Below, in pieces: positions 30 to 54,200 of a DNA stretch of 64,000 nt. The stretch lies in assembly GCA_026066175.1 (NCBI GenBank), contig GCA_026066175.1_4721.1; one strand, 5' to 3'. The DNA is from a phage. Position 1 is the first letter of the stretch; each line of letters begins with the position of its first letter. A model generated the notes under the pieces. That model did not search any database. It worked only from the letters and a program-made list of their open reading frames with translations, and was not told where the DNA came from. Position numbers and translations under genes: made by a program.

Positions 30-1175
30 TTATAGCGGTAACGTATCAAGCCATGCAGAAACCTTCAGGGCATCAACGTTCGGATATTTATTGCGTACAC
101 GTTCAACCAATAAACGCTTCACGTTGTCTTTTGTCAAGTCCCCACCTTTCTCGATAACGTTGTTAACAAAACTGTTCTTTAATAACGATTGGTTATTTTT
201 GGCATCGGTTTTAATCGACCAAATGAAACCTGGGTATAAAGCAGGAATAGAACGGAACGTTTTCGCTGCATCATCTTCCTTATCGCAACGGATTCGGATA
301 TGATCCCCTTTTTTCAATGAGGCAAGTTCCCGTTCCAAAACACGTACGATTTCATCGCCAACAAGACCATGCAATTTTATCGTCTTGTAGACATCGGCTT
401 TCTTGTTCTCAACGAACTCCCATTGGTCATTGAACGATTCGGTTAATGCGTATCGAAGATAACCTTTCGGACCTTCTTCTCCATGCGCAAGACGTCCGAA
501 CGAACCTCCCACCATGATACGCCCTTTCTGCGACTGTAAGTGAATATGCCCACTTACAATCCATCCTTGCGTTTTCTCCACCATCACGTTATACGCATCG
601 CTGCTATGCACACATGTTGCTTTTAACGCTTCGGGTGGTAGTTGATACTCAAACGCACCGTGCATCAGAATAAAGTCGGGCGATCCTTTCTCATCAATGA
701 GTTTGTTCACAGCTGCTAACGTCACGTCTGGGTCATGGCTGTAGTTATCAGGAAGATAAAGCACTTTCAACCCGAAGTCTTCATCGACCATGCAGAGATC
801 GTCATAGTAACGAACTTTCGCACCGATTTCCATGACTTCATTCTGTTCCACAAACCACTGGCTTTGCTTCTGATCGTGTAAGTTGGTGCCCTCAAGAAAG
901 ATCAACGTAATATCGTGTTTTCTTGCGTATCTTAACAGCCAGGTACCCCAGGCACGAACAGCAACCACATCGCTTGTTACAAAGGTCGTAATACGGTCGA
1001 AGACATCACCACTGAATGTAATCACGTCGAGTAACGCCGGGTCCTCTTTCGTGATGTAATAACGCAGCTGGCTAATCAGGTTTACCGTTGGCGTTTGACG
1101 ATGGATAAAATGAATATCCGATAAATTGATTCCTCGTAATACCCCAGGCGTTTTATTTCGGCTGAAGTCTCGCAT
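30..1175 (-). CDS. calcineurin-like metallophosphoesterase (possible SbcD/Mre11-type nuclease)
   Basis: 381-aa ORF with metallophosphoesterase motifs in canonical order: SDIHF (D-x-H), FSGDVFD (GD), EGTNLHD (GNH[DE]-like), LMHG, SGHIHL (GH-x-H). Start ATG overlaps the stop of the upstream ORF (TAATG). Confidence 0.6.
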   Translation of the reverse strand: MRDFSRNKTPGVLRGINLSDIHFIHRQTPTVNLISQLRYYITKEDPALLDVITFSGDVFDRITTFVTSDVVAVRAWGTWLLRYARKHDITLIFLEGTNLHDQKQSQWFVEQNEVMEIGAKVRYYDDLCMVDEDFGLKVLYLPDNYSHDPDVTLAAVNKLIDEKGSPDFILMHGAFEYQLPPEALKATCVHSSDAYNVMVEKTQGWIVSGHIHLQSQKGRIMVGGSFGRLAHGEEGPKGYLRYALTESFNDQWEFVENKKADVYKTIKLHGLVGDEIVRVLERELASLKKGDHIRIRCDKEDDAAKTFRSIPALYPGFIWSIKTDAKNNQSLLKNSFVNNVIEKGGDLTKDNVKRLLVERVRNKYPNVDALKVSAWLDTLPL

Positions 1176-5304: not shown

Positions 5305-5683
5305 CTGTTTGTCGACTATATCTTCATCTTCATTGCGAAGAGACTCTCGTTTGGGTTTGTGTTTAACAAAGCCTACTCTACTCAACATCGCGTCTTTCGA
5401 TAGTCTGTGAGCACACATCTTAACGAATATTCGTGGGTTCCTACAGACAGGTGAATATTCTTGTTGAGATGCTTCGCTGCGGATTATTCCCGTCCTACCT
5501 CTTTTACCATACCCAGTTCATTACGCTGGCCCTCATCGATGTCACCATGATGAGTTGGTGTGTAGTCCGATTACAGAAACTTCCCGTCAATTAGAGAGTT
5601 TTAACTATGCTCCTGTTACCAGGAACCAGATCCCGACGGCATCAATAAATCAACGTAAGTTATTGATTTAATTGAAAAAACTG
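5305..5683 (-). mobile_element. group I intron B (td-like, ORF-less)
   Basis: Minus strand carries group I core elements in order: Q AATCCGCAGC (5490-5476), R TCACAGACTA (5410-5401), S GATATAGTC (5322-5314), ending in G at 5305. P3-like AACTCTCTAATTGACGGGAAG near 5615. Only about 9 nt separate S from the 3' splice site (short P9). Confidence 0.55.
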
Positions 5684-5696
5684 AAATCTGCATTAT
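5684..5696 (-). CDS. 13-nt micro-exon (AT-AAT-GCA-GAT-TT) encoding the NADF part of YNADFDGD
   Basis: Lies between intron A (ends in G at 5697) and intron B. Splicing exon1-microexon-exon3 gives in-frame ...MILKGS-Y-NADF-DGDAMNNHIVP..., recreating the universal YNADFDGD motif. Both upstream exons end in U as group I 5' splice sites require. Confidence 0.5.
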
Positions 5697-6059
5697 CTAA
5701 ACCTTCGATATGGTTCGCTACGCCATACCCGCACATACGTGCAGCTTACGTCTTTCACGTAAGAAGAGACTATATCTTTCACCCTCAGCTTTACCTGTTA
5801 GGGGCTCCCATTTCGGCGGTCGTTTGACCGGTGGTTTCCCACGCCGCTTGGCCCTAACGCCCGTAAGCGATAGTCGTTGAGCACATCTCCGTTCTGGAGA
5901 CTTCGCTGCGGATTCCCCAATCCTTACTGCTTTTACCGTACCTGAATGATTAGTTCAGCCCCATGCTCTGTTCCCAGGCATGGTTGGTGAGCAAGGCTCT
6001 AAGTAGGTTCCCGCTATTAGAGAGTTCCTCGTGATAGCATTACTGTGTCACTGGGCCTA
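5697..6059 (-). mobile_element. group I intron A (td-like, ORF-less)
   Basis: Minus strand core elements: GGAACTCTCTAATAGCGGGAACC (P3 region), GGTAAAAGCAGTAAGGATTGGGGAATCCGCAGC (Q, 5914-5905), TCAACGACTA (R, 5880-5871), GATATAGTC (S, 5776-5768), then P9 hairpins CTTACGTGAAAGACGTAAG and GCACGTATGTGC. No ORF of 60 aa or more in this stretch. Confidence 0.65.
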
Positions 6060-7305
6060 ATGACCCTTTCAAGATCATCACGCTTAACCCGATGGTATTA
6101 TCCTGCGGGTCGCGTTTAACCTTGGTGATTTCAAGACATTGGTTACTGCTACGGTCAAGTGATGGATTTCGAACAAAGCCACACACAATCCCATCGAACG
6201 GTGTATCAGCAATAAGCTCGTCATGCAGCTCGCTCATCATCGGATGATAATTGCGGACATGCTCTGCAACGAACGCACGGGCTGCTCTTGGTGAATAACC
6301 ACGATGGAATAACTTGGATTGGATATGTTCTTTATTGGTTAGTGTAAATGGTGCGTACGGAAAATGCAGATGATAATAACGATGGTTTGCTGTTATCGAA
6401 CTGATGACCGTACGTGTGGTGAATGGATGTAATGTACCTAATATGTTCTTACGTGTGATCCCTTTCTTCTTACCAATGAACTCATCGAAAATCGCCGAGT
6501 GATACTGCAACAGCTTCAATTGCACTTTCGCCATCCAGTTTTCTTTCTTTCTGGCGCTTAGTGGCGTGGTTGGATGATAGATGCTATTCAATGTTCCGAT
6601 GGCGTCTATCGCACCTTCCATTTTGCTGTCAGCGTAACGTCCTGTTGGCGTGTTCTCGATCACGAACATCATGGCTGCAGGAAAGCTGATGTACTGACTG
6701 AAGAATTTATCCCGATGAATACGGATGAATTCGCGTAGCGTATCAACCTTCTCCATGTTCTTCGGTCCACGTAGTGTTGGGCCTTTATACAAGATCTCCA
6801 TGATACGATCGAAGTTCTGTATAAAGCTATTTATACCGCGTCGTATTCCGAATACATCGAATTGCTGTTCCAGATAGTTCTTAAGTTCGATCGGTCGTTT
6901 TACGTTCGGACGGTAACTGGCATCAATGAGCCACGTCATCGTTTCAAAGCTTTTGATATTCAACTCGCTTGCCAGCACGAGATGGACCAACGGGTTAATG
7001 AACGCATCGATACCTTCCGGTACGCGCGCCCAGACCGTTGAACGAATCTCTTGTTCTGCTGGATAAGTGACAACCGTTTTACAGTTCGGGCACACCGTCC
7101 CTAATAACTCACCGCGATTATAGAAACCACAACCGCATTGCGGGGTGATATCCAAGGTATCGCTAGAGTAAACACGGGTGATGAAACTGTTTAATTTCTT
7201 CTTCTCTTCCACGACCTTCGTATCATAATCGTTCAACAATATCGGCGTAAAAGGAAGTTCTGCGAGCTGTCTATCGAAACTGACGATATCGAGCATGATG
7301 GCCAT
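6060..7305 (-). CDS. RNAP beta-prime N-terminal subunit, exon 1 (non-virion-RNAP-like)
   Basis: Zinc ribbon CGCG..x12..CPNC near the N-terminus. GKKKGITRKNILGTLHPFTTRTVISSI matches beta-prime [25 protein letters not shown]. Tracked ORF runs to a stop at 6040, but homology ends exactly where NADFDGD is expected; predicted 5' splice site is after U at 6060. AGGAG SD upstream of ATG 7305. Confidence 0.7.
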
Positions 7306-7397: not shown

Positions 7398-9296
7398 TTA
7401 GAACAGGTTGAATGCCCCGCCCATGCCGTTACCGCCCACATTCGGACGATCGTTACGTGCGTAGATGTTACCGCTGATGGTACCCAGACCACGAGCACGT
7501 GCTGCCATGTTACCACGAACAGCGGTACCTGCCAGATGCTGGATGTTCTCAGGACGGATGGTGAAGCCTGCTTCAGCAGCCGCTTCAATCAGTGCCTGCA
7601 GCGCCAGCGGATCGAAATCATAACGCATCGCCCAGCCAGTTTGTTCCCAGCTACCAGACAGAACGCGGTCGATGATTTCGTGACGAGCAACCACACGCTG
7701 AGACATCGACATATCGGTACGGTCGAAGCTGTCTTCCCAAGCTTCTACGGTATCCGGGTTAGTGATGTTCATCATGTACAGATCGTCCATATCACGAATA
7801 TCGTGACGGTTACCGTCCTGGTGGTTGTAGTGACCCAGCGGGATACGGTTACCGGTCGCGTAGACCAGCGGTGAGCCGTACGGATATTTCTTGCTGAAGC
7901 AACCCAGGGTAACATCATCGAACGCACGGAAGAGGGCTTTGTAGCCTTCGGAGTATTCCTGTACGTCCCCTTCAACATTACCCGAGAAGATCTTCTCAGC
8001 CGCCGGGATCATACGCAGCAGCCAGCTGTACTCACCTTCTTCTGGTACGTCGATAGAGATCAGCAGAGACGGATACAGAACCTGTTGCAGGAACTTGTAA
8101 ATCTGCTCGTTGGTTTGCGTAGACAGATCCAGCGGTGCAGTCACTTCAGGATCCAGCACCATCGCCAGAGCACCTGGGTTATGCGGACCAATACCACGAG
8201 CTGCGTTGCTGATTAAAGACTGCGCCCACGCCATGCCGCTGTTCAGCGTAGCGATGGTACCAATCAGACCCAGCACGAAGCTGTTCGGCGTGAACGCATC
8301 CAGTTCCAGCGGATACATGCTGGTCATTACGTAGCGCGGTTGGTACTGTACAGTTGGCGGTACCGGATAACCGTTAACCAGAACAGGACCTTGCTGGAAG
8401 GTCGGGTTCTGCGGGCTGTAGGTCAGATCGATATAACCGGTGGATGCAACCAGACGCTGCTGGCTATCGTAATCGCCCATCGCTTGACGGATGCGGTTAG
8501 AGATAGTTACAGTAATGTCGGAGCGTACCGGGTTACCCGCGATATCGCTATCCTGCATGCCGCTGGTGTTATACTGAACGCTACTGATCGGCTGATCGCT
8601 TGCCATCATACCCAGGTTGAACTGAGGCAGGCCCAGTCTGTCAGCAAAACGCATTTCGGTTGCCGTCTGGATCGCGTTATCCGCTGCGGAAAGCAGGGTG
8701 GTTGCCAGATGCGCAGATTCAGCAGTGATTTCATTGGTCACAACAGCCAGACCAGCGATACGTACCGTACCGTTAGCTTTACCACCGATAGCCGCATACA
8801 TCGCTGCCATGACTTCGTTGATGAACGTGCCGTTCAGGTTATCCACCCAAGTACATGGTACCAGGATGTTACCGTGAGGACCACGTTCTTCACGACGTGG
8901 CAGCGGAGCCAGGCCAGCAACCAGCGGAAGGACGTAACCGAAGAAGTGGTTATGATCACCCACTTTTACACCGCTCATCACAACCAGAGTCGGATACGGT
9001 ACGCTGTACTGATTCGGGTCAACCGCAACAAAGATGAAGTCGTCTTTGAACTGGGTATCTTCCAGATATTTCTCCATCAGACGACGGAGATTCAGTACCT
9101 GCTCGGAGCCGGTATTACGGCTGATACGACGGCTCAGTGTACGGTTAATCGTACGCATCGTATGAGTTACTTTAGGACGGTCAGCAAAATCTGCAGCGGT
9201 TTCGACCGCCTCGTTAGCATGCTGCGCCGTGCGGGTTTCAGCCACGCGGATGTCTACGTTATCGTTACCGTTATTGTTACGTACGTCTAAGCCCAT
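7398..9296 (-). CDS. abundant 632-aa protein; candidate phage-nucleus shell protein (chimallin)
   Basis: Size matches characterised chimallins; codon usage looks high-expression (CGT/GGT/CTG-rich). Own upstream promoter-like element and strong downstream hairpin. Lies immediately upstream of a beta-prime N-terminal gene, the arrangement I recall for phiKZ. No sequence comparison was possible. Confidence 0.45.
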   Translation of the reverse strand: MGLDVRNNNGNDNVDIRVAETRTAQHANEAVETAADFADRPKVTHTMRTINRTLSRRISRNTGSEQVLNLRRLMEKYLEDTQFKDDFIFVAVDPNQYSVPYPTLVVMSGVKVGDHNHFFGYVLPLVAGLAPLPRREERGPHGNILVPCTWVDNLNGTFINEVMAAMYAAIGGKANGTVRIAGLAVVTNEITAESAHLATTLLSAADNAIQTATEMRFADRLGLPQFNLGMMASDQPISSVQYNTSGMQDSDIAGNPVRSDITVTISNRIRQAMGDYDSQQRLVASTGYIDLTYSPQNPTFQQGPVLVNGYPVPPTVQYQPRYVMTSMYPLELDAFTPNSFVLGLIGTIATLNSGMAWAQSLISNAARGIGPHNPGALAMVLDPEVTAPLDLSTQTNEQIYKFLQQVLYPSLLISIDVPEEGEYSWLLRMIPAAEKIFSGNVEGDVQEYSEGYKALFRAFDDVTLGCFSKKYPYGSPLVYATGNRIPLGHYNHQDGNRHDIRDMDDLYMMNITNPDTVEAWEDSFDRTDMSMSQRVVARHEIIDRVLSGSWEQTGWAMRYDFDPLALQALIEAAAEAGFTIRPENIQHLAGTAVRGNMAARARGLGTISGNIYARNDRPNVGGNGMGGAFNLF

Positions 9297-9534: not shown

Positions 9535-10629
9535 ATGTTTCGTGTTTTAAATAACCTCCCGCGAACATCATCGGGTGTGCAACCCATCCCTCAGAAAGAC
9601 TACCTAATACGCGAAGTTCAAAGAAACCTACAGACAATCCAGAACCACTATCAAGGTTTTACCTTCGCGGTTCAGAGCGATCACATCCTTGCATTGCTGC
9701 TCGCACAGCTCCCTATGAGATACGACATCTCAGTACAAACTTACTACGACATGATCGCTGACCTTACACCAGAATTGGGGAATCGCGTTAAGCTAACAAC
9801 AGCGCGATACGCGGGTAAGTTATTTAACGGTGCGTTCTATCCAGGATTGCATGAAGCGATCATCGCAACCAGCGAAAGCCGTCTTATATCGCGTGACGTT
9901 CTCGATAACTGGCGTAACTGGTCTCCGGTCAGAATCGTGACACACCCCTACGCGAATCTTCGTTATATCCCTCTGCATCAAAAGCCGGTTGAAGAAGGAC
10001 GGGGTTTTGCAGTTATCATGATCGATGTTCCTTTATTAGCATTGCAGTATCGCATGTGGTCATTGGTCATGGGTCACAACGTCGATGGTAAATGGGTGGT
10101 TAAAGAACCCGTTACAAGTTTCATTGCCAGTTTTCCTTTGGTCAATGCGTTATATACACACAACGACGTGGCTATCCGCAATCGTTGCTTATGGGTACCT
10201 CCGGCTAAGAATCCGCTCAAGTCACCGATTTACGTCAACGATCTGGATAACGTTTTCAGTCAAGTGGTGCTGACCGTCCAACATCAGCTATTACGAAGAA
10301 AACGTAGTTACACCGACATGTTGAAACAGATACCGAGTTTATACGAGGATCAATTTCAAGCAACACGCATGGGTTACACGATCGATCTTCGACAAACACG
10401 GTGGGCAAGGGATCTCGGATGTTTGTCTTTATGGCAACAGCTTGTTACCTTGCAAAACGTTTCAGAAAGCGTCGGCTTCAGTAGTCAAACCGATAACGAC
10501 TTATATCGTGCAGCCGATCGAAGTCTAAAAGAAGGGAACTGGGAATCGTCTCCTTTACCCGGTGATCTACGACGTGAGGTTACCGCACAGGTTGCTGATC
10601 TTTTAAAAATTCTTCCCGCTGGTGTATAA
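9535..10629 (+). CDS. hypothetical protein
   Basis: 364-aa ORF with GGAG SD; diverges from the 632-aa gene across a 238-bp intergenic region. Confidence 0.55.
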   Translation: MFRVLNNLPRTSSGVQPIPQKDYLIREVQRNLQTIQNHYQGFTFAVQSDHILALLLAQLPMRYDISVQTYYDMIADLTPELGNRVKLTTARYAGKLFNGAFYPGLHEAIIATSESRLISRDVLDNWRNWSPVRIVTHPYANLRYIPLHQKPVEEGRGFAVIMIDVPLLALQYRMWSLVMGHNVDGKWVVKEPVTSFIASFPLVNALYTHNDVAIRNRCLWVPPAKNPLKSPIYVNDLDNVFSQVVLTVQHQLLRRKRSYTDMLKQIPSLYEDQFQATRMGYTIDLRQTRWARDLGCLSLWQQLVTLQNVSESVGFSSQTDNDLYRAADRSLKEGNWESSPLPGDLRREVTAQVADLLKILPAGV

Positions 10630-10668: not shown

Positions 10669-12822
10669 TTACTCTGCGGTTTCTTTTTTCGGTTGGTAGC
10701 TTGCAGCGATATCTTGGGCTAACAGTGTGTTGTTTTTATTCGAAATGAAAATACCGTAACTTTCCATTAATGCGTAATACGAGCGAACGAGTGTAGAAAT
10801 CAATCGACGAATATCCATACCTTGGATGAAAATATCGGGAAGCCCAGAGGCTTCGATCACCGGTAATGGTATCGTTAAATTGCTTATCGTTTTCTTATCG
10901 TTACGTACAATCCAATCACGGAAACGTTGTTGTAACCCTTTATCCTCCCAGGAATCAATCCAATCATTAAGAAGCGTTTTGTTCTTCGTTGCCAATGGTA
11001 CACGAACCCCAACATAAGGCGGTTCAGGGCAATGGCCGTACGATTGCGCAAACACCTCTTCCCACATGTCGTACGACTGCTTGGTAACCGCAACATGGGG
11101 TTTTACTTTAACGCGTGTTAAGAAATCAGGATCGCCGCGTTTCATCGATTCCACGATTTCGTTTTCTAACGCGATGATATCATCAAGTACCAATCTGATA
11201 CTGATCTTCTCGTTACGTAACAGTTTATCCATGATACCGCACATCATGCGCTCAACACGTTGTACGATCATTTTTGGTGCTGATGCGTCACGCATAACGG
11301 GACCTTTCAATTCCAGTTTCGGCGGATTGATTGGAACCCCTTCACGCATGGTCATGTAACCGTAATAGTTTTTACCCATTGAAGTCAACGACAGAATCAA
11401 GAACATATACTCGTTCTTCATTTCCATCACGTACATATGCTCTTTCGCGACGCCGATATTACCCGAACACATTGCCATCAGATGAACCGTAATCTGCGTA
11501 ACCAGGTAGATAAGCGTATTCGCTAAGCGCGTTGAAATCGGATTGATCTCCATGTTGCCAAACCGCCACTGAACCCACTCCTGACAGGTAAATACCGTTG
11601 AGTCGGTATCAGACAACACACCCACTTCACGGATGGCTGACGGAAACGCATAAACACCAGCGGGTTGGTTCTCGGTACGCCAGAACGCCATAATCAGGTC
11701 AGCGTAACTCTGGATACGCTGCAACATTAACTTTGTCGTGGCTGCGGTGAGACGATAACCCAGTTCGTTGCCTTTTTCTAACGCAACGTAAATCGCTTCA
11801 CCATTTAAGAACTCGGTACACTGTGCTGTAATCCAGGCAACCGTGTTATTATCCATGGATGCAATAATGGCTTTCGCCTCTTCCATCGTTTCAACAGGTT
11901 CGGTGGCCAATTCACATAACGAATCAAGGAACCCACGAACAAACTCAGGGTTCAGTTCGCGTAACGAATACAAGTTGTTGCTATACATGTAACAAGCACG
12001 TTCCAACGGCGTTAAGCCGTTAATCAACTCCTGAATGACCAGTTCTTTTTCCGGGTCGAAAATATAGCGATGCAGGCATTTTGATACATTAGCCCAAACC
12101 TCTTCCGGTGTCGGGTAATGTAGCTGGTATTTTACCATCACCTGCTCAATGGCTTTACGGTCGCTGTTACGGACAATGCTTACGATATTTTCAATCGCGA
12201 TATCACAATCGTAATAATGAAAATTACCTGCCAGGAACCGTTCGTTATTCGCATTCGCTGAACCGGAAGCGCATCGGCATGTCGTGGTTAAACTCGGGTG
12301 TGCGATCGGGTTATAAAAAGGATTGAATTTAGATGCCTGTGTTCCCGACAAACTGTTGTTGTCTAACTTGGTATTGGTCTGTCGTTTATCATGCAGTTCC
12401 GCTTCGTCTTTACGTCCATGCGCTTGTGCAATAGACATCTGTTTCTTTTGTTTCTTACGCAGCTTACCGTTTTCAACCGCAAAGTCGCTTAACACGCTGG
12501 AACGTGTTTCACGTGGATAACAGTTCGCCCATACCGGGGTAATGATTAAATTATTTTCTTTGATATCGTTGATATACTGACTGAACTTAATAAGTTCTTT
12601 TTCGCGGTTCCCTTCTGTACGTTGTGTTAAAACAAGACAGTCGGGATCGACCATCCCATGTGCACCACCTGGCTTGATGGTATCAAGTACGAACCGTAAT
12701 GCTTCTTGTTGAGAAATACCACGCATGCGCATTAAGAACAGGGTATAATCCTGCACCGCTTCTTTGGTCATATCCAACGTACGACCGTATCCGTTTTCGT
12801 CGTAAAAGAACGGATTTTCCAT
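10669..12822 (-). CDS. large hypothetical protein with polymerase-like motifs (possible divergent family-B-type DNA polymerase domain)
   Basis: 717-aa ORF, GGAGG SD. Motifs in family-B order: YSNNLYSL (motif A-like), KLMLQRIQSYA (motif B-like), VLSDTDSTVF (YGDTDS-like motif C), GKNYY (KxY-like). Weak; no Walker motif. Confidence 0.35.
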   Translation of the reverse strand: MENPFFYDENGYGRTLDMTKEAVQDYTLFLMRMRGISQQEALRFVLDTIKPGGAHGMVDPDCLVLTQRTEGNREKELIKFSQYINDIKENNLIITPVWANCYPRETRSSVLSDFAVENGKLRKKQKKQMSIAQAHGRKDEAELHDKRQTNTKLDNNSLSGTQASKFNPFYNPIAHPSLTTTCRCASGSANANNERFLAGNFHYYDCDIAIENIVSIVRNSDRKAIEQVMVKYQLHYPTPEEVWANVSKCLHRYIFDPEKELVIQELINGLTPLERACYMYSNNLYSLRELNPEFVRGFLDSLCELATEPVETMEEAKAIIASMDNNTVAWITAQCTEFLNGEAIYVALEKGNELGYRLTAATTKLMLQRIQSYADLIMAFWRTENQPAGVYAFPSAIREVGVLSDTDSTVFTCQEWVQWRFGNMEINPISTRLANTLIYLVTQITVHLMAMCSGNIGVAKEHMYVMEMKNEYMFLILSLTSMGKNYYGYMTMREGVPINPPKLELKGPVMRDASAPKMIVQRVERMMCGIMDKLLRNEKISIRLVLDDIIALENEIVESMKRGDPDFLTRVKVKPHVAVTKQSYDMWEEVFAQSYGHCPEPPYVGVRVPLATKNKTLLNDWIDSWEDKGLQQRFRDWIVRNDKKTISNLTIPLPVIEASGLPDIFIQGMDIRRLISTLVRSYYALMESYGIFISNKNNTLLAQDIAASYQPKKETAE

Positions 12823-12882
12823 AAACCCTCCAAAAGTCGTGTAGCCTATCTACATCATCTCGTATATCTGTTAAAAAAGAAA

Positions 12883-12925
12883 GACGGCATAAAAAAGAAC
12901 CGATCCAGCCGAAGCCAGATCGGTT
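12883..12925 (-). terminator. rho-independent terminator plus conserved TTTATGCCGTC motif
   Basis: Minus strand reads AACCGATCTGGCTTCGGCTGGATCGGTT hairpin (8-bp stem), then CTTTTTTATGCCGTCTTTCTTTTTT, about 65 nt upstream of ATG 12822. Confidence 0.55.
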
Positions 12926-13131: not shown

Positions 13132-13545
13132 TTACTGATTAATCAAGTCGTTAGCAACGATCTTGGTGTAGCCTGCTTGATTAAGAATCTGATTAATTTT
13201 TGTTACATCTGTCGCATCATCAATAACGATGCTGGGTTTATAAATCAACGTCTTGGTAACAACGATCGTACTCTCCTTAATCCAGGGAATCCCTAGGATC
13301 ACATACTCGCCATCAGCGGTGATGACCTCAACGTAGTTATATTTCGTTGGATCATTCGGAACGCTAGACGGAAGCCGGGAATAGATCTGCTGATGGATAG
13401 CGTCAACATCACGGCCGTTACGTACAGCGGTACGGTAGTTGTATACCGCACTAATTTCCACTCCGTTGAAGTTAACCCCAAGTTCTGAGGCGTACACATC
13501 AAAACTCACAACAGAGCCAATCTTTTCTAAATCAGAAGCTGGCAT
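13132..13545 (-). CDS. hypothetical protein
   Basis: 137-aa ORF at the head of a run of small, tightly packed minus-strand genes. Confidence 0.45.
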   Translation of the reverse strand: MPASDLEKIGSVVSFDVYASELGVNFNGVEISAVYNYRTAVRNGRDVDAIHQQIYSRLPSSVPNDPTKYNYVEVITADGEYVILGIPWIKESTIVVTKTLIYKPSIVIDDATDVTKINQILNQAGYTKIVANDLINQ

Positions 13546-17201: not shown

Positions 17202-18182
17202 TTAGAAAAGCAAGAAACCGCTGTTCTTCGCTTCCGCTACGGTTTCATCACCCACCTTCGGTGCTTGTTGACGTGCGTTACGATGTTCAACAAAACGTTT
17301 TGCTTCGTCCGCGATTTGTTTGATAATACCCCCTAAACGATCGGTGCTTAATACGAACGATGTCGCTTCACGAATCGGGCTGCTTTCCGGCACAAAACCA
17401 TCACAGCTATAAATAGCATTAACACCCATGACTTTTGTTGCATCTTTCGGATACAACGTACAGAAAGCAATCGGGCTATCATGCTCTTTGGTCCACTCGT
17501 ATCCCATGAACGTGTTCAATTCGGTGATGGTCGGTTCCAAACCGGTAACACGAGGATGGTTTAAGAAGTTCTCCAGATCAGCGCTATCCAAGCGACGGTT
17601 CTCACCAGAGAACAACACACAGAGTTGGCTGATAACGATCTGGACATCCAGGTTAACGTCTTGCTCCGATTTCCCGTTTTCGCCATTCATGTGGTAGCTG
17701 ACAATCACAGGACGTTTCAACCCTTCTGCGGCTGCCATCAGTCCTTTGAACGTACGGTCAGCATTGATGGTCTGACGTTCATCGTCGAAGGAGGCAACGA
17801 TACAACAGACGACACGCTCACCGCGTTCCAGCAGGTTAGCGACCAGCGCAGGGCCTGCAACGGAACCCGAACCACCGCTTAAGCTGAAGACGACGATGTT
17901 GAATTTACCTGGCGTATGCTTATTAAGAATACCTGGGATTTGTGAGCAGATCAGTTCAGCATTCTCATCGCGTTTCTTACCGGAACCATCAAGCTCGCGG
18001 CCTGCTGCATCTTTAAAGATGTAAATGTGATCATCGTCCAGTGCGCTATCACGTAGGTTAGCACGGCTGGTATCAACATACGTCATGCTGTGTAATCCTT
18101 TCGCGACTTCGCCTTCAAATGCTGAGCCGATTTCGCCGCCACAACCACCAACCGCCCAAATATGTACTTGGTTCTCTTGCAT
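17202..18182 (-). CDS. phuZ: phage tubulin/FtsZ-like GTPase (PhuZ-like)
   Basis: 326 aa. N-terminal IWAVGGCGGEIG (tubulin/FtsZ T1 loop, cf. GVGGGGGNA) and FSLSGGSGSVAGP (tubulin signature GGGTGSG equivalent). Size typical of jumbo-phage PhuZ. Confidence 0.75.
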   Translation of the reverse strand: MQENQVHIWAVGGCGGEIGSAFEGEVAKGLHSMTYVDTSRANLRDSALDDDHIYIFKDAAGRELDGSGKKRDENAELICSQIPGILNKHTPGKFNIVVFSLSGGSGSVAGPALVANLLERGERVVCCIVASFDDERQTINADRTFKGLMAAAEGLKRPVIVSYHMNGENGKSEQDVNLDVQIVISQLCVLFSGENRRLDSADLENFLNHPRVTGLEPTITELNTFMGYEWTKEHDSPIAFCTLYPKDATKVMGVNAIYSCDGFVPESSPIREATSFVLSTDRLGGIIKQIADEAKRFVEHRNARQQAPKVGDETVAEAKNSGFLLF

Positions 18183-43471: not shown

Positions 43472-44602
43472 TTATTTGGCTTCATTAAAATAAATATCAA
43501 CGGCACGTTCCGTTGCGTAGAGAAGACCCAGATTCACGGTCCCTACCACTTCCGGTGAACCGATGATACGGTTAGCGATACTGGTGCCACTGAAGATAGC
43601 ATCAAGGGTGTGCCCGTCTTCGGTTTTGTTCACACCATGACCCACGGAAGAGACAACGGATTTCGCCTGTGCGGCGAAGGTACCTTTATCCCCCATTCCC
43701 GCACCAAGGTCGTAACGCATGAAAATACGGATCGCGATCTGGTTCTCACCTAACGGATTACCGTCTATTCTCACGTTACTGTTATTGATGCGTCCCGTTG
43801 TTGCTTCGTTGAGTTTCAGTTCCTTAACACGTTTAGCTCGCGCCTTATCAGCGTCACCCACAAGTGCTGCCATGGTTTCGCTCATGTCTTCAATCTGAGC
43901 GCGGTACAACACATCGATCTGTACGACTTCACCATGCACGTCAGCGCGTGGGTTATACTGACTCATACGGCGTAACGCTTCAACCGCTTCCTGACTTTCA
44001 TCGCTCAGATCGGTTGCAATAGGTTCTTCCAGTGTTGCCAGGATCGTCCGAGGTTCAACATGATCGCCGATTTTCACCAAACCACGAATGTTGAGATGAG
44101 CGTCAACAATGAGCGTACGGCTCTTAATCGATGGGGTTACGAGACGATCGGCAAGATTGTCGAAGATATACGAACTGTCCTCGTGCGTTTCTGGAATATC
44201 CAGAATACCAACCAGAGACAACACGCCTGCGCGCCAAACAACCTGACCTGGGTTCCACCAATCCCGTTTAAAATAAAGACGATGGAAAACCACTACATCC
44301 TGGTCCTTAACGCGATCCCCGACTTTATAATCGGTAATGAGATCGTGAGGATAATACTTACCTGGTCCTTTCCCGATTATCGTACCGAGTTGGAAAACCT
44401 CTTCCCCTAATTCTGGATCGTCGTATTGTATCGTAAGCGCTGTTTTGGTGACCTTCTTCACAACACCATCGCCTTGAGCAGCTGCTGCGAAGAGTTTACC
44501 AACACGATGCGCGATAACAGTCTCGCCACCAGTGCGCCATGGTTGTACGTCGTAACCTTCAGCGGCTATCATGCGGTTGTGTTGGATGCCTATAAACACC
44601 AA
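43472..44602 (-). CDS. RNAP beta subunit, middle segment (probable exon 2 of an intron-split beta gene)
   Basis: [28 protein letters not shown] matches beta [35 protein letters not shown]...[21 protein letters not shown] matches beta GRHGNKGVIS...[22 protein letters not shown]. The tracked ORF begins at a TTG, not ATG, consistent with an internal exon. Confidence 0.6.
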   Translation of the reverse strand: [376 protein letters not shown]

Positions 44603-46273
44603 TCTCTTGGGCGAATTTAGTTCTTATTCAGTATTAACATACCGTTACCGAAATAAGACTGAGATTAGATTGTTCAGATAAGGTCGTTAATCTTATCCCG
44701 GAGGTGATGATAGGCACATCACCTCCCGCTTACGTTCTCACGCAAGAGCAGACTATATCACATCTCGTTTCAAACGGTGCTTCTTCAGCACCTCAACGAG
44801 AGTTCACTTCTTCCCAGCGCATCCAGCGCCATTCTCTTATCCAAGGAGAATGCCTCACTCGAGGGGTACAGGGGGATGAATCCCTTAGTCGTTGAACCGT
44901 CACCCTAGAACGTTTCACAACGATCCTTAGGCGATTGGCTGCGGATTACCCTTGGCCTGCGGACCACGAACTTTTGTCGCGGTCAACTCTTCATTTTTAA
45001 AGCCTGCTTCACGAGCAATACGTCTCGCTTCTCGCACGTCTAACGTTTCCGTTTCCGCTTTGGCTGAAGGCAGCATTGGGCGTCCCCGCAATTCAATGAA
45101 TCTCGTCCATACGTCACCGTATAAACGGACCCGCTCTTTGTAAACAGAATAGTAGATATAACGTTTTCCGTCAGGAAATTTAGTCATTCCATCCGACTTT
45201 AAACGGTAATTGAGTAACGTAGTAGATATACCCATTTCTTCAGCGCAATCGACGGCCGAAAGGTACAACAGAGGTACATCATTTTCAGGAATGACGACAA
45301 TAGCACGTTTGTTGGTTGTCTTCTCCAACTCCAGGATACTATCTTCGACTTCTCGCCATGGCGTCTCATCAGTAACCCACTTAACTTGATAACAACCATT
45401 AACGACAGGTTGGTTCTTGTCGTTAACGTACATCGACGCAGTGGATAACTTAACACCAATGTGATTCGCGAATTCAGTCAATGATTCGAAAAGATGAATC
45501 TCTTTTGTTATCGTTGACCTTGCAATCACACCCTTACTTCCCGTATCCGTCAACGTTGCTAACTCGTATTTGGTGGGAATACGCCATGGTTCATCGCCGT
45601 AATCTTTGCGGTACTGCTTACGTTCAGGAAACGCTCGCTGTTTGCCTCTATAGACACGATGATGAATGAAGTCGATATTCACACCAAGATCGCGTGCCGC
45701 TTCCGTCATGGATGGATATCTGGTTACAACACCGGTATCAACATCACGAACCTGAATAGGTTTACCGTAGGCAGCAATTGAACGTTTACGCATGTTCATA
45801 ATGCGAGCATGCTGATTGTTCTCTTTCTGCGTAACCCATTCAAGATTGTCATTCTCGGCGTTACCGTCGGGATCAAGGTAGTTATTAAGTCTGTTGCCGT
45901 CCTTGTGGTTCACATGGAGCAAATGCGCATCATCGATGTTACGGAACGTTAACATTAGAAGCCTGTGCATGGAACGGTAAACCAATGTTCCATCGTGACC
46001 TCGAAACGAATAACGATAATACCCAGCAATGATGGTGGGCAAATATTCAAACTTCGATTCCTTGTTACGCAATGTTCCATCTATGGATATCTCCAGGAAC
46101 GGGAATTCCGGTACGGTCTTAAATACCTTCTCACTCATTGACTATATTCCTCTTGTGCAGTGAAACTAACTACACTTTCGTAATATAGCCTTAATTCTGT
46201 TTACATTGAAGCCTTAATCATCTCTATCAGCAGCAGGTACTGCAAGTGCTGATGTACTCATTATTGACGAGCT
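44603..46273 (-). mobile_element. group I intron (td-like) carrying an HNH homing endonuclease ORF; boundaries approximate
   Basis: Minus-strand core elements 3' of the HNH ORF: Q GGGTAATCCGCAGCC (overlapping the last HNH codons, about 44950-44937), R GGTTCAACGACTAAGGG (about 44899-44883), S GATATAGTC (about 44760-44752), then P9-like hairpins. Beta homology in the upstream ORF ends at ...SVYGETKPYDEKTDG. Confidence 0.55.
44927..46138 (-). CDS. HNH homing endonuclease (intron-encoded)
   Basis: 403 aa; HNH motif HVNHKDGNRLNNYLDPDGNAENDNLEWVTQKENNQHA; basic C-terminal DNA-binding-like region; lies between two beta segments. Confidence 0.8.
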   Translation of the reverse strand: MSEKVFKTVPEFPFLEISIDGTLRNKESKFEYLPTIIAGYYRYSFRGHDGTLVYRSMHRLLMLTFRNIDDAHLLHVNHKDGNRLNNYLDPDGNAENDNLEWVTQKENNQHARIMNMRKRSIAAYGKPIQVRDVDTGVVTRYPSMTEAARDLGVNIDFIHHRVYRGKQRAFPERKQYRKDYGDEPWRIPTKYELATLTDTGSKGVIARSTITKEIHLFESLTEFANHIGVKLSTASMYVNDKNQPVVNGCYQVKWVTDETPWREVEDSILELEKTTNKRAIVVIPENDVPLLYLSAVDCAEEMGISTTLLNYRLKSDGMTKFPDGKRYIYYSVYKERVRLYGDVWTRFIELRGRPMLPSAKAETETLDVREARRIAREAGFKNEELTATKVRGPQAKGNPQPIA

Positions 46274-49200
46274 ACCATCCGTTTTCTCGTCGTAGGGTTT
46301 CGTTTCACCGTATACAGACACAATGTTTGCGTTAGGTGCGAGGTAAGCAGAAATACCTACGTCCCCACTATCCTTCGTACCTTCGGATACAACACCAATG
46401 TCCGACTTGTCGTACTCACGATCGCGTGCGCGTCGAAGCGATGTTTTCGAACGACCCCCGATACCGGTCATCGTTGCTTCTTCACCCTGCTTGATATCCA
46501 GCATCGGGTTGGTTTCATCGATGACGATAGAAGCACTGTCGTCAAGGATTTGGTTCCAAACGCTCACCGGACTGATTGAGATCTTCTGTCGGTTGCCTTG
46601 GCTGCTGTTCTCGTTTTGACGAATAGCACCAACCAGATCCTTATACACCAACTCAGCGAACTTATCGTACGTTTTGAAGCGCTGGTAGTTCACGTCGTTC
46701 GTGTTAGGTGCCCAATCGTCCAGAAGCAGTTCAACCGCACGTAATAACAACATGGCGAAATCAGTCGGTTCGCCCATGTTCTGTAATAACGTACGACTTA
46801 CCGGGTCGACGAAAAGACGCTCCATGAGTTCAAGTTCGCGAAGATGACGAACCTTAAGACCTGCACCATCGACAACGTTAAAATAGATATCCCGATTGTC
46901 GAAAGCACCTCGAGCGTAACCAATGTAGTTACGGTATTCGTTGAATCCGCCTAACAACAATGTCGTCATTCGATCATCTTTACTGAAGATCAAACTTTCA
47001 TCGTCGAAGCTCACCGCGAATTCATCCGATGCTAATCCCATACGAGAACCACGAGGTACCGTACGGTAGTTCGCTTTAAGATGTTCTAATAACGGTGTAA
47101 GACCACCTAAGTAACTTAACACAACACCAACCGGAATACGTACGCCCATGAACTCAAGGTCAGCGGCTTCGATGGGCATCTTCGCGGCATTGATACCGAA
47201 GAAATCAGGGAACGTTCCAACCGGCGTTGGGGTTTGATTCGGTTCGTAAACGTATAACTGATTCTGACCATCCACCGCCAGGAATTCGCCGTTGGTGTTT
47301 TTGGCGAACGTTAAGAATCCACCCGCCAGCTGTTCGGTGAATAAATCTTCACCGATGTGTTCCGGCAACGTTTTGATATCGAGGCGTATGTCCCAATCCG
47401 CAAATTGGATTTGGGTGTAGTTACGTGCAAGCACCGCGAAGTAATACGGAACTTTGACAGACGGATCAAAGACGTTACCACGTTTTAAGGTGGTTAAGGG
47501 CGAGGTTTTATCGTAATACATCGCTGTGAGTTGACGTGTTAACCAACGACCAGCATTATTAACCACGCGTTCTGAACGCTTAACGAACACCTTACCGTAG
47601 GCGGTACTCAACGCAACTTCGGATGACGATACCTTTCTGATTGGTTTATCGACACGTTGTTTACGCATTCGATATTTAATGCCGTTAACGACATAAATGC
47701 CGTCCTTACGAACCTTCGGTAACATCACCGGGAACGTGGTCGGAACACCGCCTACCGGAGCCAGCTTGATCGTGATGACCTGGTAATCACCCATCACGTC
47801 AACAACATCTTCAACTTTATATCCGGTAACAGGATAGCCCGCTTGCTGCACCGCCACAACGGCTGCTGCGATGTCCTTTTGCATGACATGTTCGACGTAG
47901 TGTTTATCCCATACGGCAAGCGTCGATTTGCACAAGCTCTTATCAACGATAACGTCCGCTTCCGGCATCACCTTCTCAGGTGCTAATTTCGCGGCTTTTG
48001 GTTTAACCTCAACGTATTCAGCAAGCGTGAGTCCAGAACCGTCAGGTGCTTCAATTTCATGAATCGCGTCAGCGTTACGCATCGCTGCTTTATATTGAAC
48101 GCCGCTTAATTGACCAGCATCCGCGAGGTCGCTTGCACGTACCAGCACTGCATCGGATAACGACTGAATATATTCACCGTGCGTTTTCGGTAACGTTGCC
48201 GCATCGAAGACATCAACTTTTTCTTCCGGCATGTCATCGTTGACAACCTCAAAGAGATCATCGGTGATGTCTTGATCTTCGTCCGGTTGAAAATCGGGCT
48301 GAACTTCAACGCCAGGGACTTCACGAACATCTTCAAACGCACGTTCAACAACCGCGTTCCATGCTTCAGCGTCGTCATCTTCATCCGATCCTCCGATCAA
48401 CTCGCTTTCCAGTTCATCGGGGTCAAGAACGGTATCAAGGTCCTCACCGTTAGGAAGCACGACATCACGTTCATCGTACTCCGCATCGGGACTGTCTGCG
48501 AGAATATCACGCTCTTGACGAAGAACCTGCTCCTCTTCTTGTTTCTGTTCTTCTTCATTGGCGCTCTGCGACCACAGACGGGTTACCGCCATCATCCAAC
48601 GACGCTGGAACGTTTCAAGCGTTGTCTTATCAAGTTCCTCGCCTTCCTTCGCTAAACCCGAACGCCATTCTTCCATTAAACCAAGATTCAGAGTAAAGAA
48701 ATAGACGCCGTCCGTAAATACAACGTTAAGCTTATCCAGCGAAGCACGGTCCAATGATACCATCGTGCTGTTCTCACGATCGACACCTAACCAACGGAAG
48801 AAGTCAAAGAACGACAGCTCCTCGGAGGTGGCAAAATTCATGAGGTTATTACGGGTTGGGGCTTGTTGTGTCGTACGCATCAACGATATCTTCGGTAACG
48901 TCGACGGGATACGGAATAACAAGAACTGCTGACGGTCGCTTTGTTGGGCGATCTCGTTTGCTTGCGTCCAAATCGTTTTACGCACGTTGAACCATTCATC
49001 ATACCAACGGGTCAGTGTCGGACGATAGATGTACATGTGGTTAAGATGCGCATAGTTAGCCACGATCTGGGCGTTGATGTTCTTCTCAACCTTGCTAAGA
49101 TCGGTGACCAAACGAAAACGACGATGCGATGCACGGTAATCCAGTTTCGCACGCGGTAGCTGGAATCGCTGATCGCGTCGAGGTGCGCCTTGCTTGGTTG

Positions 49201-49423
49201 CAAGATCATCCGCGAATGATATCCAAAGCTGGGCGCTTTCTTTGCTCAGCATGTATTCGTTTTCAGGAGGACCGATTAACGAAGGATCGGTTGCTGTATA
49301 ATGATAAACCGCATAACGCGGCAGCTGCAAAAGCTGCACCAAACGCAATCTAGGTGATAATAACTCTTGATAACGTCGTACACCGAATTGTCTGTAGTAA
49401 TCAAGGTATTTAAGTTTTGCCAT
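46214..49423 (-). CDS. RNAP beta subunit, N-terminal segment (virion-RNAP-like set); last ~20 codons may be intronic read-through
   Basis: 1069 aa. C-terminal TGIGGRSKTSLRRARDREYD...EGTKDSGDVGISAYLAPNANIVSVYGETKPY matches beta LGPGGLTRERAGFEVRDVH...[30 protein letters not shown]. Start is translationally coupled to the upstream beta-prime gene. Confidence 0.6.
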   Translation of the reverse strand: MAKLKYLDYYRQFGVRRYQELLSPRLRLVQLLQLPRYAVYHYTATDPSLIGPPENEYMLSKESAQLWISFADDLATKQGAPRRDQRFQLPRAKLDYRASHRRFRLVTDLSKVEKNINAQIVANYAHLNHMYIYRPTLTRWYDEWFNVRKTIWTQANEIAQQSDRQQFLLFRIPSTLPKISLMRTTQQAPTRNNLMNFATSEELSFFDFFRWLGVDRENSTMVSLDRASLDKLNVVFTDGVYFFTLNLGLMEEWRSGLAKEGEELDKTTLETFQRRWMMAVTRLWSQSANEEEQKQEEEQVLRQERDILADSPDAEYDERDVVLPNGEDLDTVLDPDELESELIGGSDEDDDAEAWNAVVERAFEDVREVPGVEVQPDFQPDEDQDITDDLFEVVNDDMPEEKVDVFDAATLPKTHGEYIQSLSDAVLVRASDLADAGQLSGVQYKAAMRNADAIHEIEAPDGSGLTLAEYVEVKPKAAKLAPEKVMPEADVIVDKSLCKSTLAVWDKHYVEHVMQKDIAAAVVAVQQAGYPVTGYKVEDVVDVMGDYQVITIKLAPVGGVPTTFPVMLPKVRKDGIYVVNGIKYRMRKQRVDKPIRKVSSSEVALSTAYGKVFVKRSERVVNNAGRWLTRQLTAMYYDKTSPLTTLKRGNVFDPSVKVPYYFAVLARNYTQIQFADWDIRLDIKTLPEHIGEDLFTEQLAGGFLTFAKNTNGEFLAVDGQNQLYVYEPNQTPTPVGTFPDFFGINAAKMPIEAADLEFMGVRIPVGVVLSYLGGLTPLLEHLKANYRTVPRGSRMGLASDEFAVSFDDESLIFSKDDRMTTLLLGGFNEYRNYIGYARGAFDNRDIYFNVVDGAGLKVRHLRELELMERLFVDPVSRTLLQNMGEPTDFAMLLLRAVELLLDDWAPNTNDVNYQRFKTYDKFAELVYKDLVGAIRQNENSSQGNRQKISISPVSVWNQILDDSASIVIDETNPMLDIKQGEEATMTGIGGRSKTSLRRARDREYDKSDIGVVSEGTKDSGDVGISAYLAPNANIVSVYGETKPYDEKTDGSSSIMSTSALAVPAADRDD

Positions 49424-51106: not shown

Positions 51107-51246
51107 CTGAACACATGAGAGACGTAATGGGTGAAGCCATCACCCATCGCTTCCCTGCTTGATGCGAGGAAGGTATTAAATTACGTACCTGTTCGACAGC
51201 ATCGAACAGGCGATGTATGAAGCTATGCTTCAATTTGGAGGTATAC

Positions 51247-54200
51247 ATGGTAGATAAAACCCGTGTTGAGGGTGATGATAATTGGGATAACTGGGATGAT
51301 GACTTCTCCCTGGATCTCGATTTTAACGAACCCAAAGACGATCGTAAACCGATAACACGCTTTGCGGTAGGCGCGGTTAAAGGTGCTGCTGAGGATCTTA
51401 CTTCCTACGAAAGAATGAAGGAGATCGCCAGAAACGCATTACCTAAGGGTTATAGCGACGGTATGGATCTTATCGATTCCGCCGTCGGATCCACGAAGGA
51501 ACTATACAATGAAGCCGTTCGTGACATTCTTCCGAAGGTACAAAGCTCAAAACGGTTAGCCGCACAACTGACGAAAAAATACCGTGCGAGCATGCCCGAT
51601 TTCTCGAAGAAAATCATCGAGCGTTGGGAGCAGGAAGCCAAGGAAGAAGACGAACGTAAGCAGGCGGAAGCCGATCTCAAACAACGCATGGCGAATGCAG
51701 GTGATGAAGAAATCGCTCGCAAGGTCGCTGAAGCGTTAGGCGAAGCGGCTAACCAGAACGCGGATCAGTTTGCGGAACAACAAGCAAAAGAAAGTATCCG
51801 TGACGATATTGCTGATAAACGTTATAATGTCACCAACAAACAGATGAGCGCGATGCAGGAAGGCATCGCCAAGATGGTTGGTTTCAATAACGAATTCGCC
51901 GCACGCTATATGCGTAAAAGCCTGGAACTGAAATACCGTTCTTTGGCGATACAACGCGCGAGTTTCGATCAGCATAAAAAGTTAGCCGAAGTCTATATCG
52001 GTTTATTACAGAACATCCAAAAGAACACAGCTTTACCGGATGCGGCTAAAGCAAAAATGTCGGAAGAATTTCGTCGTACGGCGTACCAACGTTTCTTTGG
52101 TAACGCATTGAATGCGATGAGTTCTTTCGAGAACCGTTTCTTTGCTGATGTTAAGAAAAACCTTGCAACCAATGCACTGGGTGCGTTAAAAGGTGTTGCG
52201 TCTGGTGCGCACGACGCCCTCTCTGGTTTAAACGAAGCACGTGACTCGATGTCCATGATGGACGGCATGGGGTCAGAAGGCGATATTAAGGAAATGCAAG
52301 GGAAGATGTTGGGTCAGTTAATCGGCTCAACCGTTGCACCATGGATGGCTAATAAAGGCATGACGGCATTGCGGGATTTAGCAAAACGCCATCCTAACGC
52401 TAAATTCGCCAACGCGTTAAAAGCGGTCGATCAAGGCGGTGAAGCTGCCGCTTATACAACGCGTAACGTCGGGAAACTGCTGCAAGAAGATATTCGTAAA
52501 AACGAATTCAACCTCAGCGATCCTTTCTACAAACAGTTCCTCCGTGGAGCTGGACGTTGGGCCTTCAATCTGGACGGCGGTCGTAACTTCCGTGTAATGA
52601 ACGACACCGCAGAGACATTAGCCGAACAAACGTCTTTCGATGGTTTAACCTATCGTAGCATCAACGAGGTCATTCCTGGATTTCTTGCTCGGATACTGAA
52701 AAGCACTGAAGGTATCCGTACCGGTGAAAGCGATCCTGATTACGAGGTCTATGATGGCATCAGTGGGCAATTCGTTGCTCAGCGTACCCGCGAGCAAGGC
52801 GTAACCGACACGCTCTTTAACAAACGCTCGTTCGGTTATTACGCCGGTCGTTTTAATGAAGTTATCTCGGTTATCGATCCTGATAAACAGCTGTCAGAAA
52901 AGGCAAGGAAAGCCTTGGCTAAACAGCTGGCACGCGACAGCGATGCGAACATGGCTTTCGATCCTGCTCGATATACCGACGAAAGTAACTTTGATCGCAG
53001 CATCGATAGAGACGCCATTAAAGAACTTTCTGCGTATTTCAAAGATCGTTACGGTATTCGTGATGATGTTGATGATGAAGGTAACCGTCAGCAGGTTATT
53101 GAAAACCGTGGGCAGTACTACACGGAACGTAACCGCGCTGACCTGCGGTACGGTAATCTGAAATCATTACAGCCGGATATCCAACGCAACCTTAACCTTC
53201 TGAAGCGTACCGGTGATATTCAATACCTGGAACGTATCGGGATCGTAACAAGAAACAGCGATGGCAGTTATTCGGTTAATCACGATCGTTACTTCTCTGA
53301 AATCGATCGATACATCGACCGACCGGAATATGCTGACCGCGGCGATGTTAACACGCGACTCAGTGCCCAACAGACCAGGGCGTTAGCGTTAGGCTATCGT
53401 GATGACGTTGCATCAAACACTGACGTACAAAATCGTGCGTTACCAAACCTTGATCGAACAACGGTCGGGACGGTAAACATCGATGAGAACATCGGGTACG
53501 AGAAATGGTGGAACGACGCGGGTGTTATCACCACATCGCTTGAAGACCAAAATCGCGCATGGCAAGAACTCTATCTTGAAGCGCTTCAGGAAGCTTCACA
53601 TCAGCGTGAAACAATGCTGGAACTTCTGAAAGCGATCTCAGAAAAAGAATGGGGTGGTAACGGCATTGGACTCCAGGGCGAACCTGGCGGGGAAGAAAGT
53701 GATGATCGCTCTATGTTAAGTCGGATCTCCGACTTAACACTGGGTAAAGCCGGTAGCTATGCCTGGAAAGGTGCGAAAGGGGCTACCAAGTTCGGATGGA
53801 AATGGGGTCGAAAAGCGGCAACATGGGGCGCGAAACGTACATGGGGAAGCTTCGTAAACTCAGCGCGTCGAATTATCAACTTCAACCGTTTTGTGTTTGG
53901 CGCATTATCTAAGGTCGATCAAGTTCCGTTTGACATTTACGTTAAAGGTGAAGATCGTCCACGTATCTTAGCTGCGAAACTTCGTCAAGGTCTTTATTTC
54001 GATGAAGCCACCGGCAAAGCCGTCAAACGGATGAAGGATATTAAAGGTCCGTTAGTTGATGCTGATGGCAATATCGTCATCAGCGCTGAAGATATCGAGA
54101 AGGGCTTGATTACGCGTGCTGGACGCGCCTTCGAAAACTCCGGTTTGAAAGCATGGGCACGTGAAGGTATTAACGGTATCACCACGGTCTTAAGTTTACC

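Follow-up and report, generated by a model that had tools for sequence, protein, structure and literature searches.

A 717-residue protein of a Goslar-like jumbo phage is very probably the C-terminal, polymerase-domain subunit of a split family B DNA polymerase

Escherichia phage vB_EcoM_Goslar is a nucleus-forming jumbo phage of the phiKZ-like type. Its genome aligns at 86.8% identity with the first 25 kb of the window (the whole 64,000-nucleotide stretch of phage DNA analyzed here), the alignment covering 97% of those 25 kb; as judged by this identity, the window comes from a close relative of Goslar. The open reading frame under study has the extent given by the initial annotation (10669–12822, 717 residues), and reads from an ATG start on the minus strand. 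The locus carries the following features:

10669–12822, minus strand: polymerase gene (very probably the C-terminal/polymerase subunit of a split family B DNA polymerase; ortholog of Goslar gp244), 717 aa, ATG start
12826–12831, minus strand: Shine–Dalgarno-like GGAGGG, 3 nt 5′ of the ATG (read from the sequence)
12898–12925, minus strand: strong terminator-like hairpin, with a 12-bp stem followed by TTTTTT, separating the SH3DP and polymerase genes (consensus scan)
13132–13545, minus strand: SH3DP gene, encoding a 137-aa SH3-fold protein, upstream of the polymerase gene (PF20287, E 4.3e-36; phrog_3235)
7398–9296: chimallin gene, downstream of the polymerase gene

Comparison with Goslar gp244 (annotated “DNA polymerase” in RefSeq) gives 88.3% identity at the DNA level and 97.2% at the protein level, with 218 of the 253 nucleotide differences falling at third codon positions and 20 amino acids changed. 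The resulting dN/dS of ~0.02 marks the frame as a real and strongly constrained gene, indicative of purifying selection on the polymerase.

The SH3-fold gene next to the polymerase has been described by Iyer et al. (2021, PMC7824862), and its product is likely to be an accessory factor, and is a candidate accessory subunit, of the enzyme. It also lies upstream of the polymerase in a phiKZ-type phage (E 5.4e-37) but was not detected at that position in Vibrio phage USC-1 or Bacillus phage AgentSmith, hence the arrangement is common, not universal. Goslar has an annotated terminator at the place equivalent to the 12898–12925 hairpin. Downstream, a 364-aa gene on the strand opposite to the polymerase accompanies the chimallin gene, and this polymerase/364-aa gene/chimallin block recurs in a phiKZ-type phage and in Vibrio phage USC-1. 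A tRNA scan of the window found no tRNA, and the sole nuclease found there is an SbcD-like protein (30–1175).

The initial annotation had proposed a family B polymerase from four short strings, while allowing that the match could be coincidental. The family call is right, and the signal lies far beyond chance: the protein matches PF20286 (Divergent Family B DNA polymerase, divDNApol) with an E-value of 1.3e-202 and 675.3 bits against a gathering cut-off of 25.7, effectively end to end (protein residues 9–705 on model positions 3–704 of 705), and matches phrog_2927 (“DNA polymerase”) with an E-value of 1.7e-205. The profile-HMM comparison that had been suggested as a check thus returned a full-length family match, not an unrelated fold. 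Full-length homologues are present in 290 jumbo-phage records from hosts of the genera Pseudomonas, Erwinia, Salmonella, Vibrio, Serratia, Aeromonas, Klebsiella, Ralstonia, and Bacillus; an exhaustive profile search returned 985 clusters (50% identity) at E ≤ 1e-30; of the 150 clusters listed from these, nearly all have lengths of 700–790 aa. Iyer et al. (2021, PMC7824862) describe the family as the hallmark DNA polymerase of jumbo phages of the phiKZ type (“group 1”): its members have a DxD hairpin and, ahead of palm strand 2, a helical insert of unusual length, no exonuclease is fused to them, and a small gene for an SH3-fold protein lies upstream. The ortholog from Erwinia phage RAY (gp220) localizes inside the phage nucleus, and the family is reported to be among the core genes of phages that encode chimallin (PMC10299810).

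To place the catalytic motifs we used an alignment of 65 homologues, 23–64% identical to the 717-aa query. Residues R122, K126, K152, N156, G160, T179, E194, G199, R398, and D405 are invariant in this set, as are T406, D407, S408, K469, E471, K484, Y486, E494, K506, and G507. A single-sequence phmmer search of the PDB matched nothing relevant, whereas the 65-sequence profile reaches the classical family B polymerases. Full-length hhalign runs with a low alignment threshold misaligned the N-terminal half across the insert described below, an error corrected by the use of cut alignments. The motifs and related features of the protein are as follows:

12445–12459, minus strand: basic residues R122 and K126 of finger helix 1 (RKKQK), both invariant; predicted contacts to the dNTP triphosphate
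12343–12369, minus strand: true motif B, K152-L-D-N-N156-S-L-S-G160 (KxxxNSxYG, with Tyr replaced by Ser), from alignment to RB69/T4
11638–12207, minus strand: family-specific multi-helical insert, aa ~206–395 (~190 aa), from the structural model
11962–11985, minus strand: YSNNLYSL (aa 280–287), within the helical insert
11701–11733, minus strand: KLMLQRIQSYA (aa 364–374), within the helical insert
11590–11619, minus strand: motif C, VLSDTDSTVF (aa 402–411), a β-hairpin with D405 and D407, from conservation, the model, and the T4 alignment
11407–11421, minus strand: MKNEY (aa 468–472), with invariant K469 and E471, start of the next palm strand, from the T4 alignment
11362–11376, minus strand: KxY motif, G-K484-N-Y486-Y, with K484 and Y486 invariant; predicted contact to the primer terminus

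The fingers begin at around residue 110 and are anchored in the profile-to-PDB alignment by the family consensus “kkRkkaKk,” which pairs with “nqRkehKg” of RB69 and “fqRkdwKk” of T4. R122 and K126 are presumably the equivalents of RB69 R482 and K486. Motif B aligns with “KLLINSLYGA” and “KILINSLYGA” of RB69 and T4, placing K152 and N156 on RB69 K560 and N564; K152, N156, and G160 are invariant, S157 and S159 are conserved in at least 90% of the 65 homologues, and the motif B Tyr is replaced by Ser throughout the PF20286 family. Between the helix following motif B and the motif C hairpin, residues 206–395 contain nothing but helices in the model (pLDDT 91 for the model), matching the long multi-helical insert before palm strand 2 described for PF20286 in PMC7824862. 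Motif C then forms two strands in the model (401–405 and 408–411) and aligns with T4 “AAGDTDSVYV,” the Asp pair falling on GDTDS, such that D405 and D407 are predicted to bind the catalytic metals. Beyond it, the profile–profile alignment pairs E471 with the Glu of T4 “MDREAIS,” and the KxY motif aligns with “KKRYALN” of RB69/T4 (chain residues 705–758). This lineage carries its own substitutions at three otherwise near-invariant columns (N283 for Asp, N485 for His, and I664 for Glu). The modeled palm, fingers, and thumb resemble those of solved family B polymerases, at weak Foldseek E-values (~1e-3; TM 0.2–0.27) that the size of the insert and the multi-domain architecture probably explain.

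These assignments bear on the four strings from which the initial annotation had assembled a motif A–B–C–KxY series. All four are present in the order given: YSNNLYSL starts at residue 280, KLMLQRIQSYA at 364, VLSDTDSTVF at 402, and GKNYY at 483. The last two hold as motif C and KxY: D405, T406, D407, and S408 are invariant in the 65 homologues, as are K484 and Y486, and both Asp residues of DTDS, whose conservation had been named as a test of the proposal, are thereby retained throughout. The first two do not hold. KLMLQRIQSYA contains no column conserved at 85% or above, and the true motif B lies ~210 residues upstream; YSNNLYSL sits in the all-helical insert, C-terminal of the true motif B, and is therefore not motif A. 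The short-motif reading had thus reached the right family through partly wrong motifs.

Taken at face value, the canonical order of the strings would describe a self-contained divergent family B polymerase, with motifs A, B, C, and KxY in one chain, YSNNLYSL as motif A, and a free-standing exonuclease elsewhere. The family consensus at the supposed motif A, YTGDLYHL, lends this some credence, as position 283 is Asp in 58 of the 65 homologues; likewise, Iyer et al. (2021) call the exonuclease standalone, and the retrieved passages of that paper (PMC7824862) do not place motif A in it. Position 283 is, however, Asn in the present protein and in six other members of the family, a variation that cannot be reconciled with an essential metal ligand, and a motif A following motif B would be out of order.

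Motif A was also sought elsewhere in the chain. A column search of residues 1–120 across the 65 homologues found no invariant Asp or Glu that could represent motif A (DxxSLYPS, palm strand 1), and this lack of an invariant acid N-terminal of the fingers is incompatible with a self-contained palm-type polymerase. The model has an N-terminal hairpin (61–66/74–79) followed by a helix (80–90), a topology that pointed to a motif A Asp at around residue 78; the column there is Thr, Gly, Met, or Ile, with Asp in two outliers only. The helix at 18–34, weakly paired by hhalign with T4 “FDLTSLYPS...,” carries no conserved acid. E194 and E471 were also considered as substitute metal ligands, and were dropped as moot once motif A had been located in a second protein family. 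The Pfam scan and family alignment found neither a fused 3′–5′ exonuclease domain nor Exo motifs before the fingers.

That second family is represented by gp21 of Bacillus phage AgentSmith, a 570-aa “T4-like DNA polymerase” encoded near the PF20286 gene, which matches the family B exonuclease domain PF03104 (E 5e-8). Its C-terminus reads “...CDLDATSSYPSCTLVGNVSKET” (the region is also quoted as “...VRGITCDLDATSSYPSCTLVGNVSKET...”), comprising motif A followed by “N-x-S-x-ET” as in T4. In all, 285 phage records, phiKZ gp82 and 201phi2-1 included, hold a match that spans 80% or more of gp21, and the per-genus counts of these matches and of the PF20286 hits are equal for Pseudomonas, Erwinia, Salmonella, Vibrio, Aeromonas, Klebsiella, and Ralstonia. 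A 47-member alignment of this partner shows invariant Exo I (D144, E146), Exo II (N232, D236), and Exo III (Y366, D370) residues and a motif A, D497-x-D499-xxxx-Y504-P505, that is invariant in 47/47. In hhalign the partner family matches T4 gp43 over T4 residues 15–433 (probability 98%, E 1.8e-13), placing D499 (AgentSmith numbering) on T4 D408 and Y504 on T4 Y413, the steric-gate position, corresponding to Y416 of RB69.

Alignment thus locates motif A in the partner family and finds it absent from the 717-aa protein; with motif A on a separate N subunit, the 717-aa frame is one part of a family B polymerase and not a complete one. A canonical motif A at the end of the exonuclease protein, invariant and in register with T4 D408/Y413, makes the single-chain reading of the 717-aa protein very unlikely. 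Since the partner aligns to gp43 15–433 and the PF20286 protein picks up at around gp43 residue 434, the alignments map the break near T4 gp43 residue 433, in the palm, between the motif A helix and the “SPNG” hairpin.

The Goslar N subunit is composed of gp068 (79,690–81,189; PF03104; annotated “DNA polymerase”) and a downstream exon. Between the two lies a NUMOD1/HNH homing-endonuclease gene, and the exon begins “LDISSSYPNGQILLNLSRA...,” a layout from which it follows that a mobile element has inserted exactly at motif A. This locus (79.7–83.2 kb) is ~90 kb from gp244, beyond the region covered by the window, and accordingly no homologue is found here. Pfam gave no exonuclease-family match in the 58 other ORFs of the window, PHROGs gave no exonuclease gene on 39 window ORFs, and tblastn of the AgentSmith protein against the 64 kb gave no homologue, such that the search for a separate exonuclease gene called for in the initial annotation came back empty within the window. 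The further remark in that annotation, that jumbo phages of this type can have divergent and split polymerases, agrees as regards the split with the “split subunit DNA polymerase” of phiKZ (PMC5105663, citing Cornelissen et al. 2012, the primary source for the split).

We are highly confident that the 717-aa frame encodes the C-terminal polymerase-domain subunit of a split family B replicative polymerase of a Goslar-like, phiKZ-type (Chimalliviridae) jumbo phage. In the arrangement that we propose, the 717-aa chain would supply the fingers, with R122, K126, and the motif B residues K152/N156, as well as the thumb, the ~190-aa helical insert, and the second half of the palm, which holds the motif C hairpin (D405/D407), E471, and K484-x-Y486; R122, K126, K152, and N156 would bind the dNTP triphosphate, and KxY would contact the primer. 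The N subunit (~570 aa) would comprise an N-terminal domain, the 3′–5′ exonuclease (Exo I–III), and motif A (D-x-D-x-x-x-x-Y-P), so contributing proofreading along with two residues of motif A, its Asp and the Tyr that occupies the steric-gate position. With motif A on one chain and motifs B, C, and KxY on the other, the active site would therefore need both. The analysis shows family membership, fold, the distribution of the motifs between the two proteins, and purifying selection. No purified or assayed PF20286-family member came up in our literature search, and the PDB search gave no relative closer than the classical family B polymerases; catalytic activity, heterodimer formation, and any role of SH3DP or the helical insert are accordingly inferred.

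Inactivated family B polymerase modules exist in archaea and in Pol epsilon, and both the missing motif A and the large non-canonical helical insert could be taken to mean that the 717-aa protein derives from a polymerase but no longer polymerizes DNA, having assumed a structural or regulatory role. Such a loss of function is scarcely credible here, given that R122, K126, K152, N156, D405, D407, K484, and Y486 are all invariant across 23–64% identity and that dN/dS is ~0.02. Moreover, the ~176 kb of Goslar annotation covered by the analysis contain nothing else annotated as a DNA polymerase beyond the partner gene, save gp039 (598 aa, named only “polymerase”), and the reported core-gene status of the family (PMC10299810) speaks against it too.

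The source of primers raises a different alternative, namely that the enzyme is a primase-polymerase and itself primes. Iyer et al. (PMC7824862) noted that group 1 phages are without DnaG-type and AEP primases and suggested, as speculation, self-priming by the polymerase; the Ser at the motif B position where canonical family B enzymes have Tyr would be in keeping with it. No sequence feature points to de novo initiation, however, and the same source offers the phage RNA polymerases as an alternative origin of primers. The motif A Tyr of the N subunit (Y504, on T4 Y413) is invariant, which argues for dNTP selectivity, and altogether we consider a self-priming enzyme highly improbable.

For the split polymerase that we favor, the practical consequence is that anyone seeking an active enzyme should regard the 717-aa protein as half of one, with motif A and the proofreading exonuclease carried by another gene outside the window. 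The gene has been described before, as a core gene of an established phage group, and the biochemistry of phiKZ-type replicases (how the chains assemble, what SH3DP and the insert do, where primers come from) is not specific to this locus; the value of the result lies mainly in annotation, as the gene can now be named with confidence “DNA polymerase, family B, C-terminal (polymerase) subunit.”

Compared with other PF20286 members (Goslar gp244, RAY gp220), the protein shows no difference of substance: it shares their ~710-aa length, DxD hairpin, helical insert, and lack of a fused exonuclease, and its gene likewise has SH3DP upstream and is syntenic with that for chimallin. Relative to gp43 of T4/RB69 the differences are large. 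There the polymerase is a single 898-aa chain, whereas here it is encoded by two genes with the break near gp43 residue 433; the 717-aa protein carries the ~190-aa helical insert and has fingers much shorter than those of T4. In addition, gp43 has no counterpart to ~78 N-terminal residues of the 717-aa protein and ~45 C-terminal residues of the partner. We tentatively suggest, as a possibility that we rate below even odds, that these two segments bridge the break and form a novel heterodimerization module, and that together with the insert and SH3DP they make up a clamp-independent processivity device; with regard to SH3DP or the insert, a clamp substitute has already been suggested by Iyer et al. 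(PMC7824862). If true, one catalytic site would be built across two chains by a module without counterpart in solved family B polymerases. That the polymerase is split has been published before; where the break falls and what the interface is like may not have been.

A two-polypeptide family B replicase is likewise formed by the split gp43 (43A/43B) of some T4-like phages, for example the “split DNA polymerase” of Acinetobacter phage Henu6, in which, as here, the first chain carries the exonuclease and motif A and the second carries motifs B and C. The C-terminal fragments of these T4-like proteins are ~390 aa long and match only about the last 72% of a T4 370–898 query, an extent that would put their break more C-terminal, in or near the fingers, in contrast to the position in the palm after the motif A helix seen here. 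The 43A and 43B genes are also adjacent, whereas the two phiKZ-type genes are ~90 kb apart in Goslar. Poxvirus/NCLDV polymerases are the closest relatives by the profile–profile comparison of Iyer et al. (PMC7824862), and our own profile matches the finger and motif B region of vaccinia E9 and mpox F8 with an E-value of ~5e-5; these differ in being single chains of ~1000 aa with a fused exonuclease and their own, different inserts and processivity factors.

The window polymerase (the 717-aa C-terminal subunit of a split family B DNA polymerase, whose numbering is used here) carries three residues, E194, G199 and R398, that are invariant throughout the family in an alignment of 65 homologues and for which no counterpart could be aligned in T4 or RB69. 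All three are positioned around both ends of the family-specific helical insert, and may serve as its anchors.

A C-terminal polymerase fragment alone, of ~390 aa, occurs in many T4-like phages (that of Acinetobacter phage Henu6 is annotated "split DNA polymerase"). These fragments represent an independent split of a family B replicase; judged by the extent of the T4 query that they cover, the break appears to fall at a different position from that in the phiKZ-type split of the window polymerase.

The gene for the N subunit of the Goslar polymerase, gp068 (NC_048170 record 79690–83167), is itself interrupted, and the break falls precisely at motif A. The residues "...RLFVAD" close exon 1, after which comes gp069, a NUMOD1/HNH gene; the downstream exon beyond gp069 is unannotated, begins "LDISSSYPNGQ..." and reaches a stop ~80 codons on.

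A virion RNA polymerase beta gene in the window (43472–49423, minus strand) is divided over two ORFs, with an endonuclease ORF and an intron match between them:

46214–49423, minus strand: virion RNA polymerase beta, ORF 1 (phrog_3148 positions 2–1050)
44927–46138: HNH/NUMOD1 homing-endonuclease ORF
44729–45152: group I intron match (RF00028, 51.4 bits)
43472–44602, minus strand: virion RNA polymerase beta, ORF 2 (phrog_3148 positions 1055–1422)

Two further group-I-intron-like elements lie in tandem (5305–6083, minus strand) directly downstream of the ORF for non-virion RNA polymerase beta (6040–7305), whose end they also overlap:

5746–6083, minus strand: group-I-intron-like element (27.9 bits)
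5305–5674, minus strand: group-I-intron-like element (49.1 bits, slightly below the gathering score of 50)

Comparison of this locus with Goslar reveals 92% identity between window 5309–5696 and an annotated Goslar intron; the Goslar HNH gene gp186 is missing here, and window 5697–6064 is without a Goslar counterpart.

The polymerase is flanked by the following genes:

7398–9296, minus strand: chimallin (nuclear shell)
9535–10629, plus strand: conserved 364-aa gene (phrog_3938)
17202–18182, minus strand: PhuZ tubulin

The order polymerase/364-aa gene/chimallin is kept in phiKZ-type and Vibrio jumbo phages.

Elsewhere in the window are two other genes:

51217–57918, plus strand: 2233-aa ORF (N-terminal half, tail-fibre family phrog_3201, E 2e-298)
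30–1175, minus strand: SbcD-like nuclease subunit (phrog_100, E 4e-39)

Over residues ~1850–2070, the 2233-aa product has matches to endolysin/chitinase-type families, suggestive of a lytic domain associated with the virion. The SbcC-like partner of the SbcD-like protein is distant in Goslar (gp012, at 7.5–10 kb), a further case of functionally linked genes being scattered in such jumbo-phage genomes.
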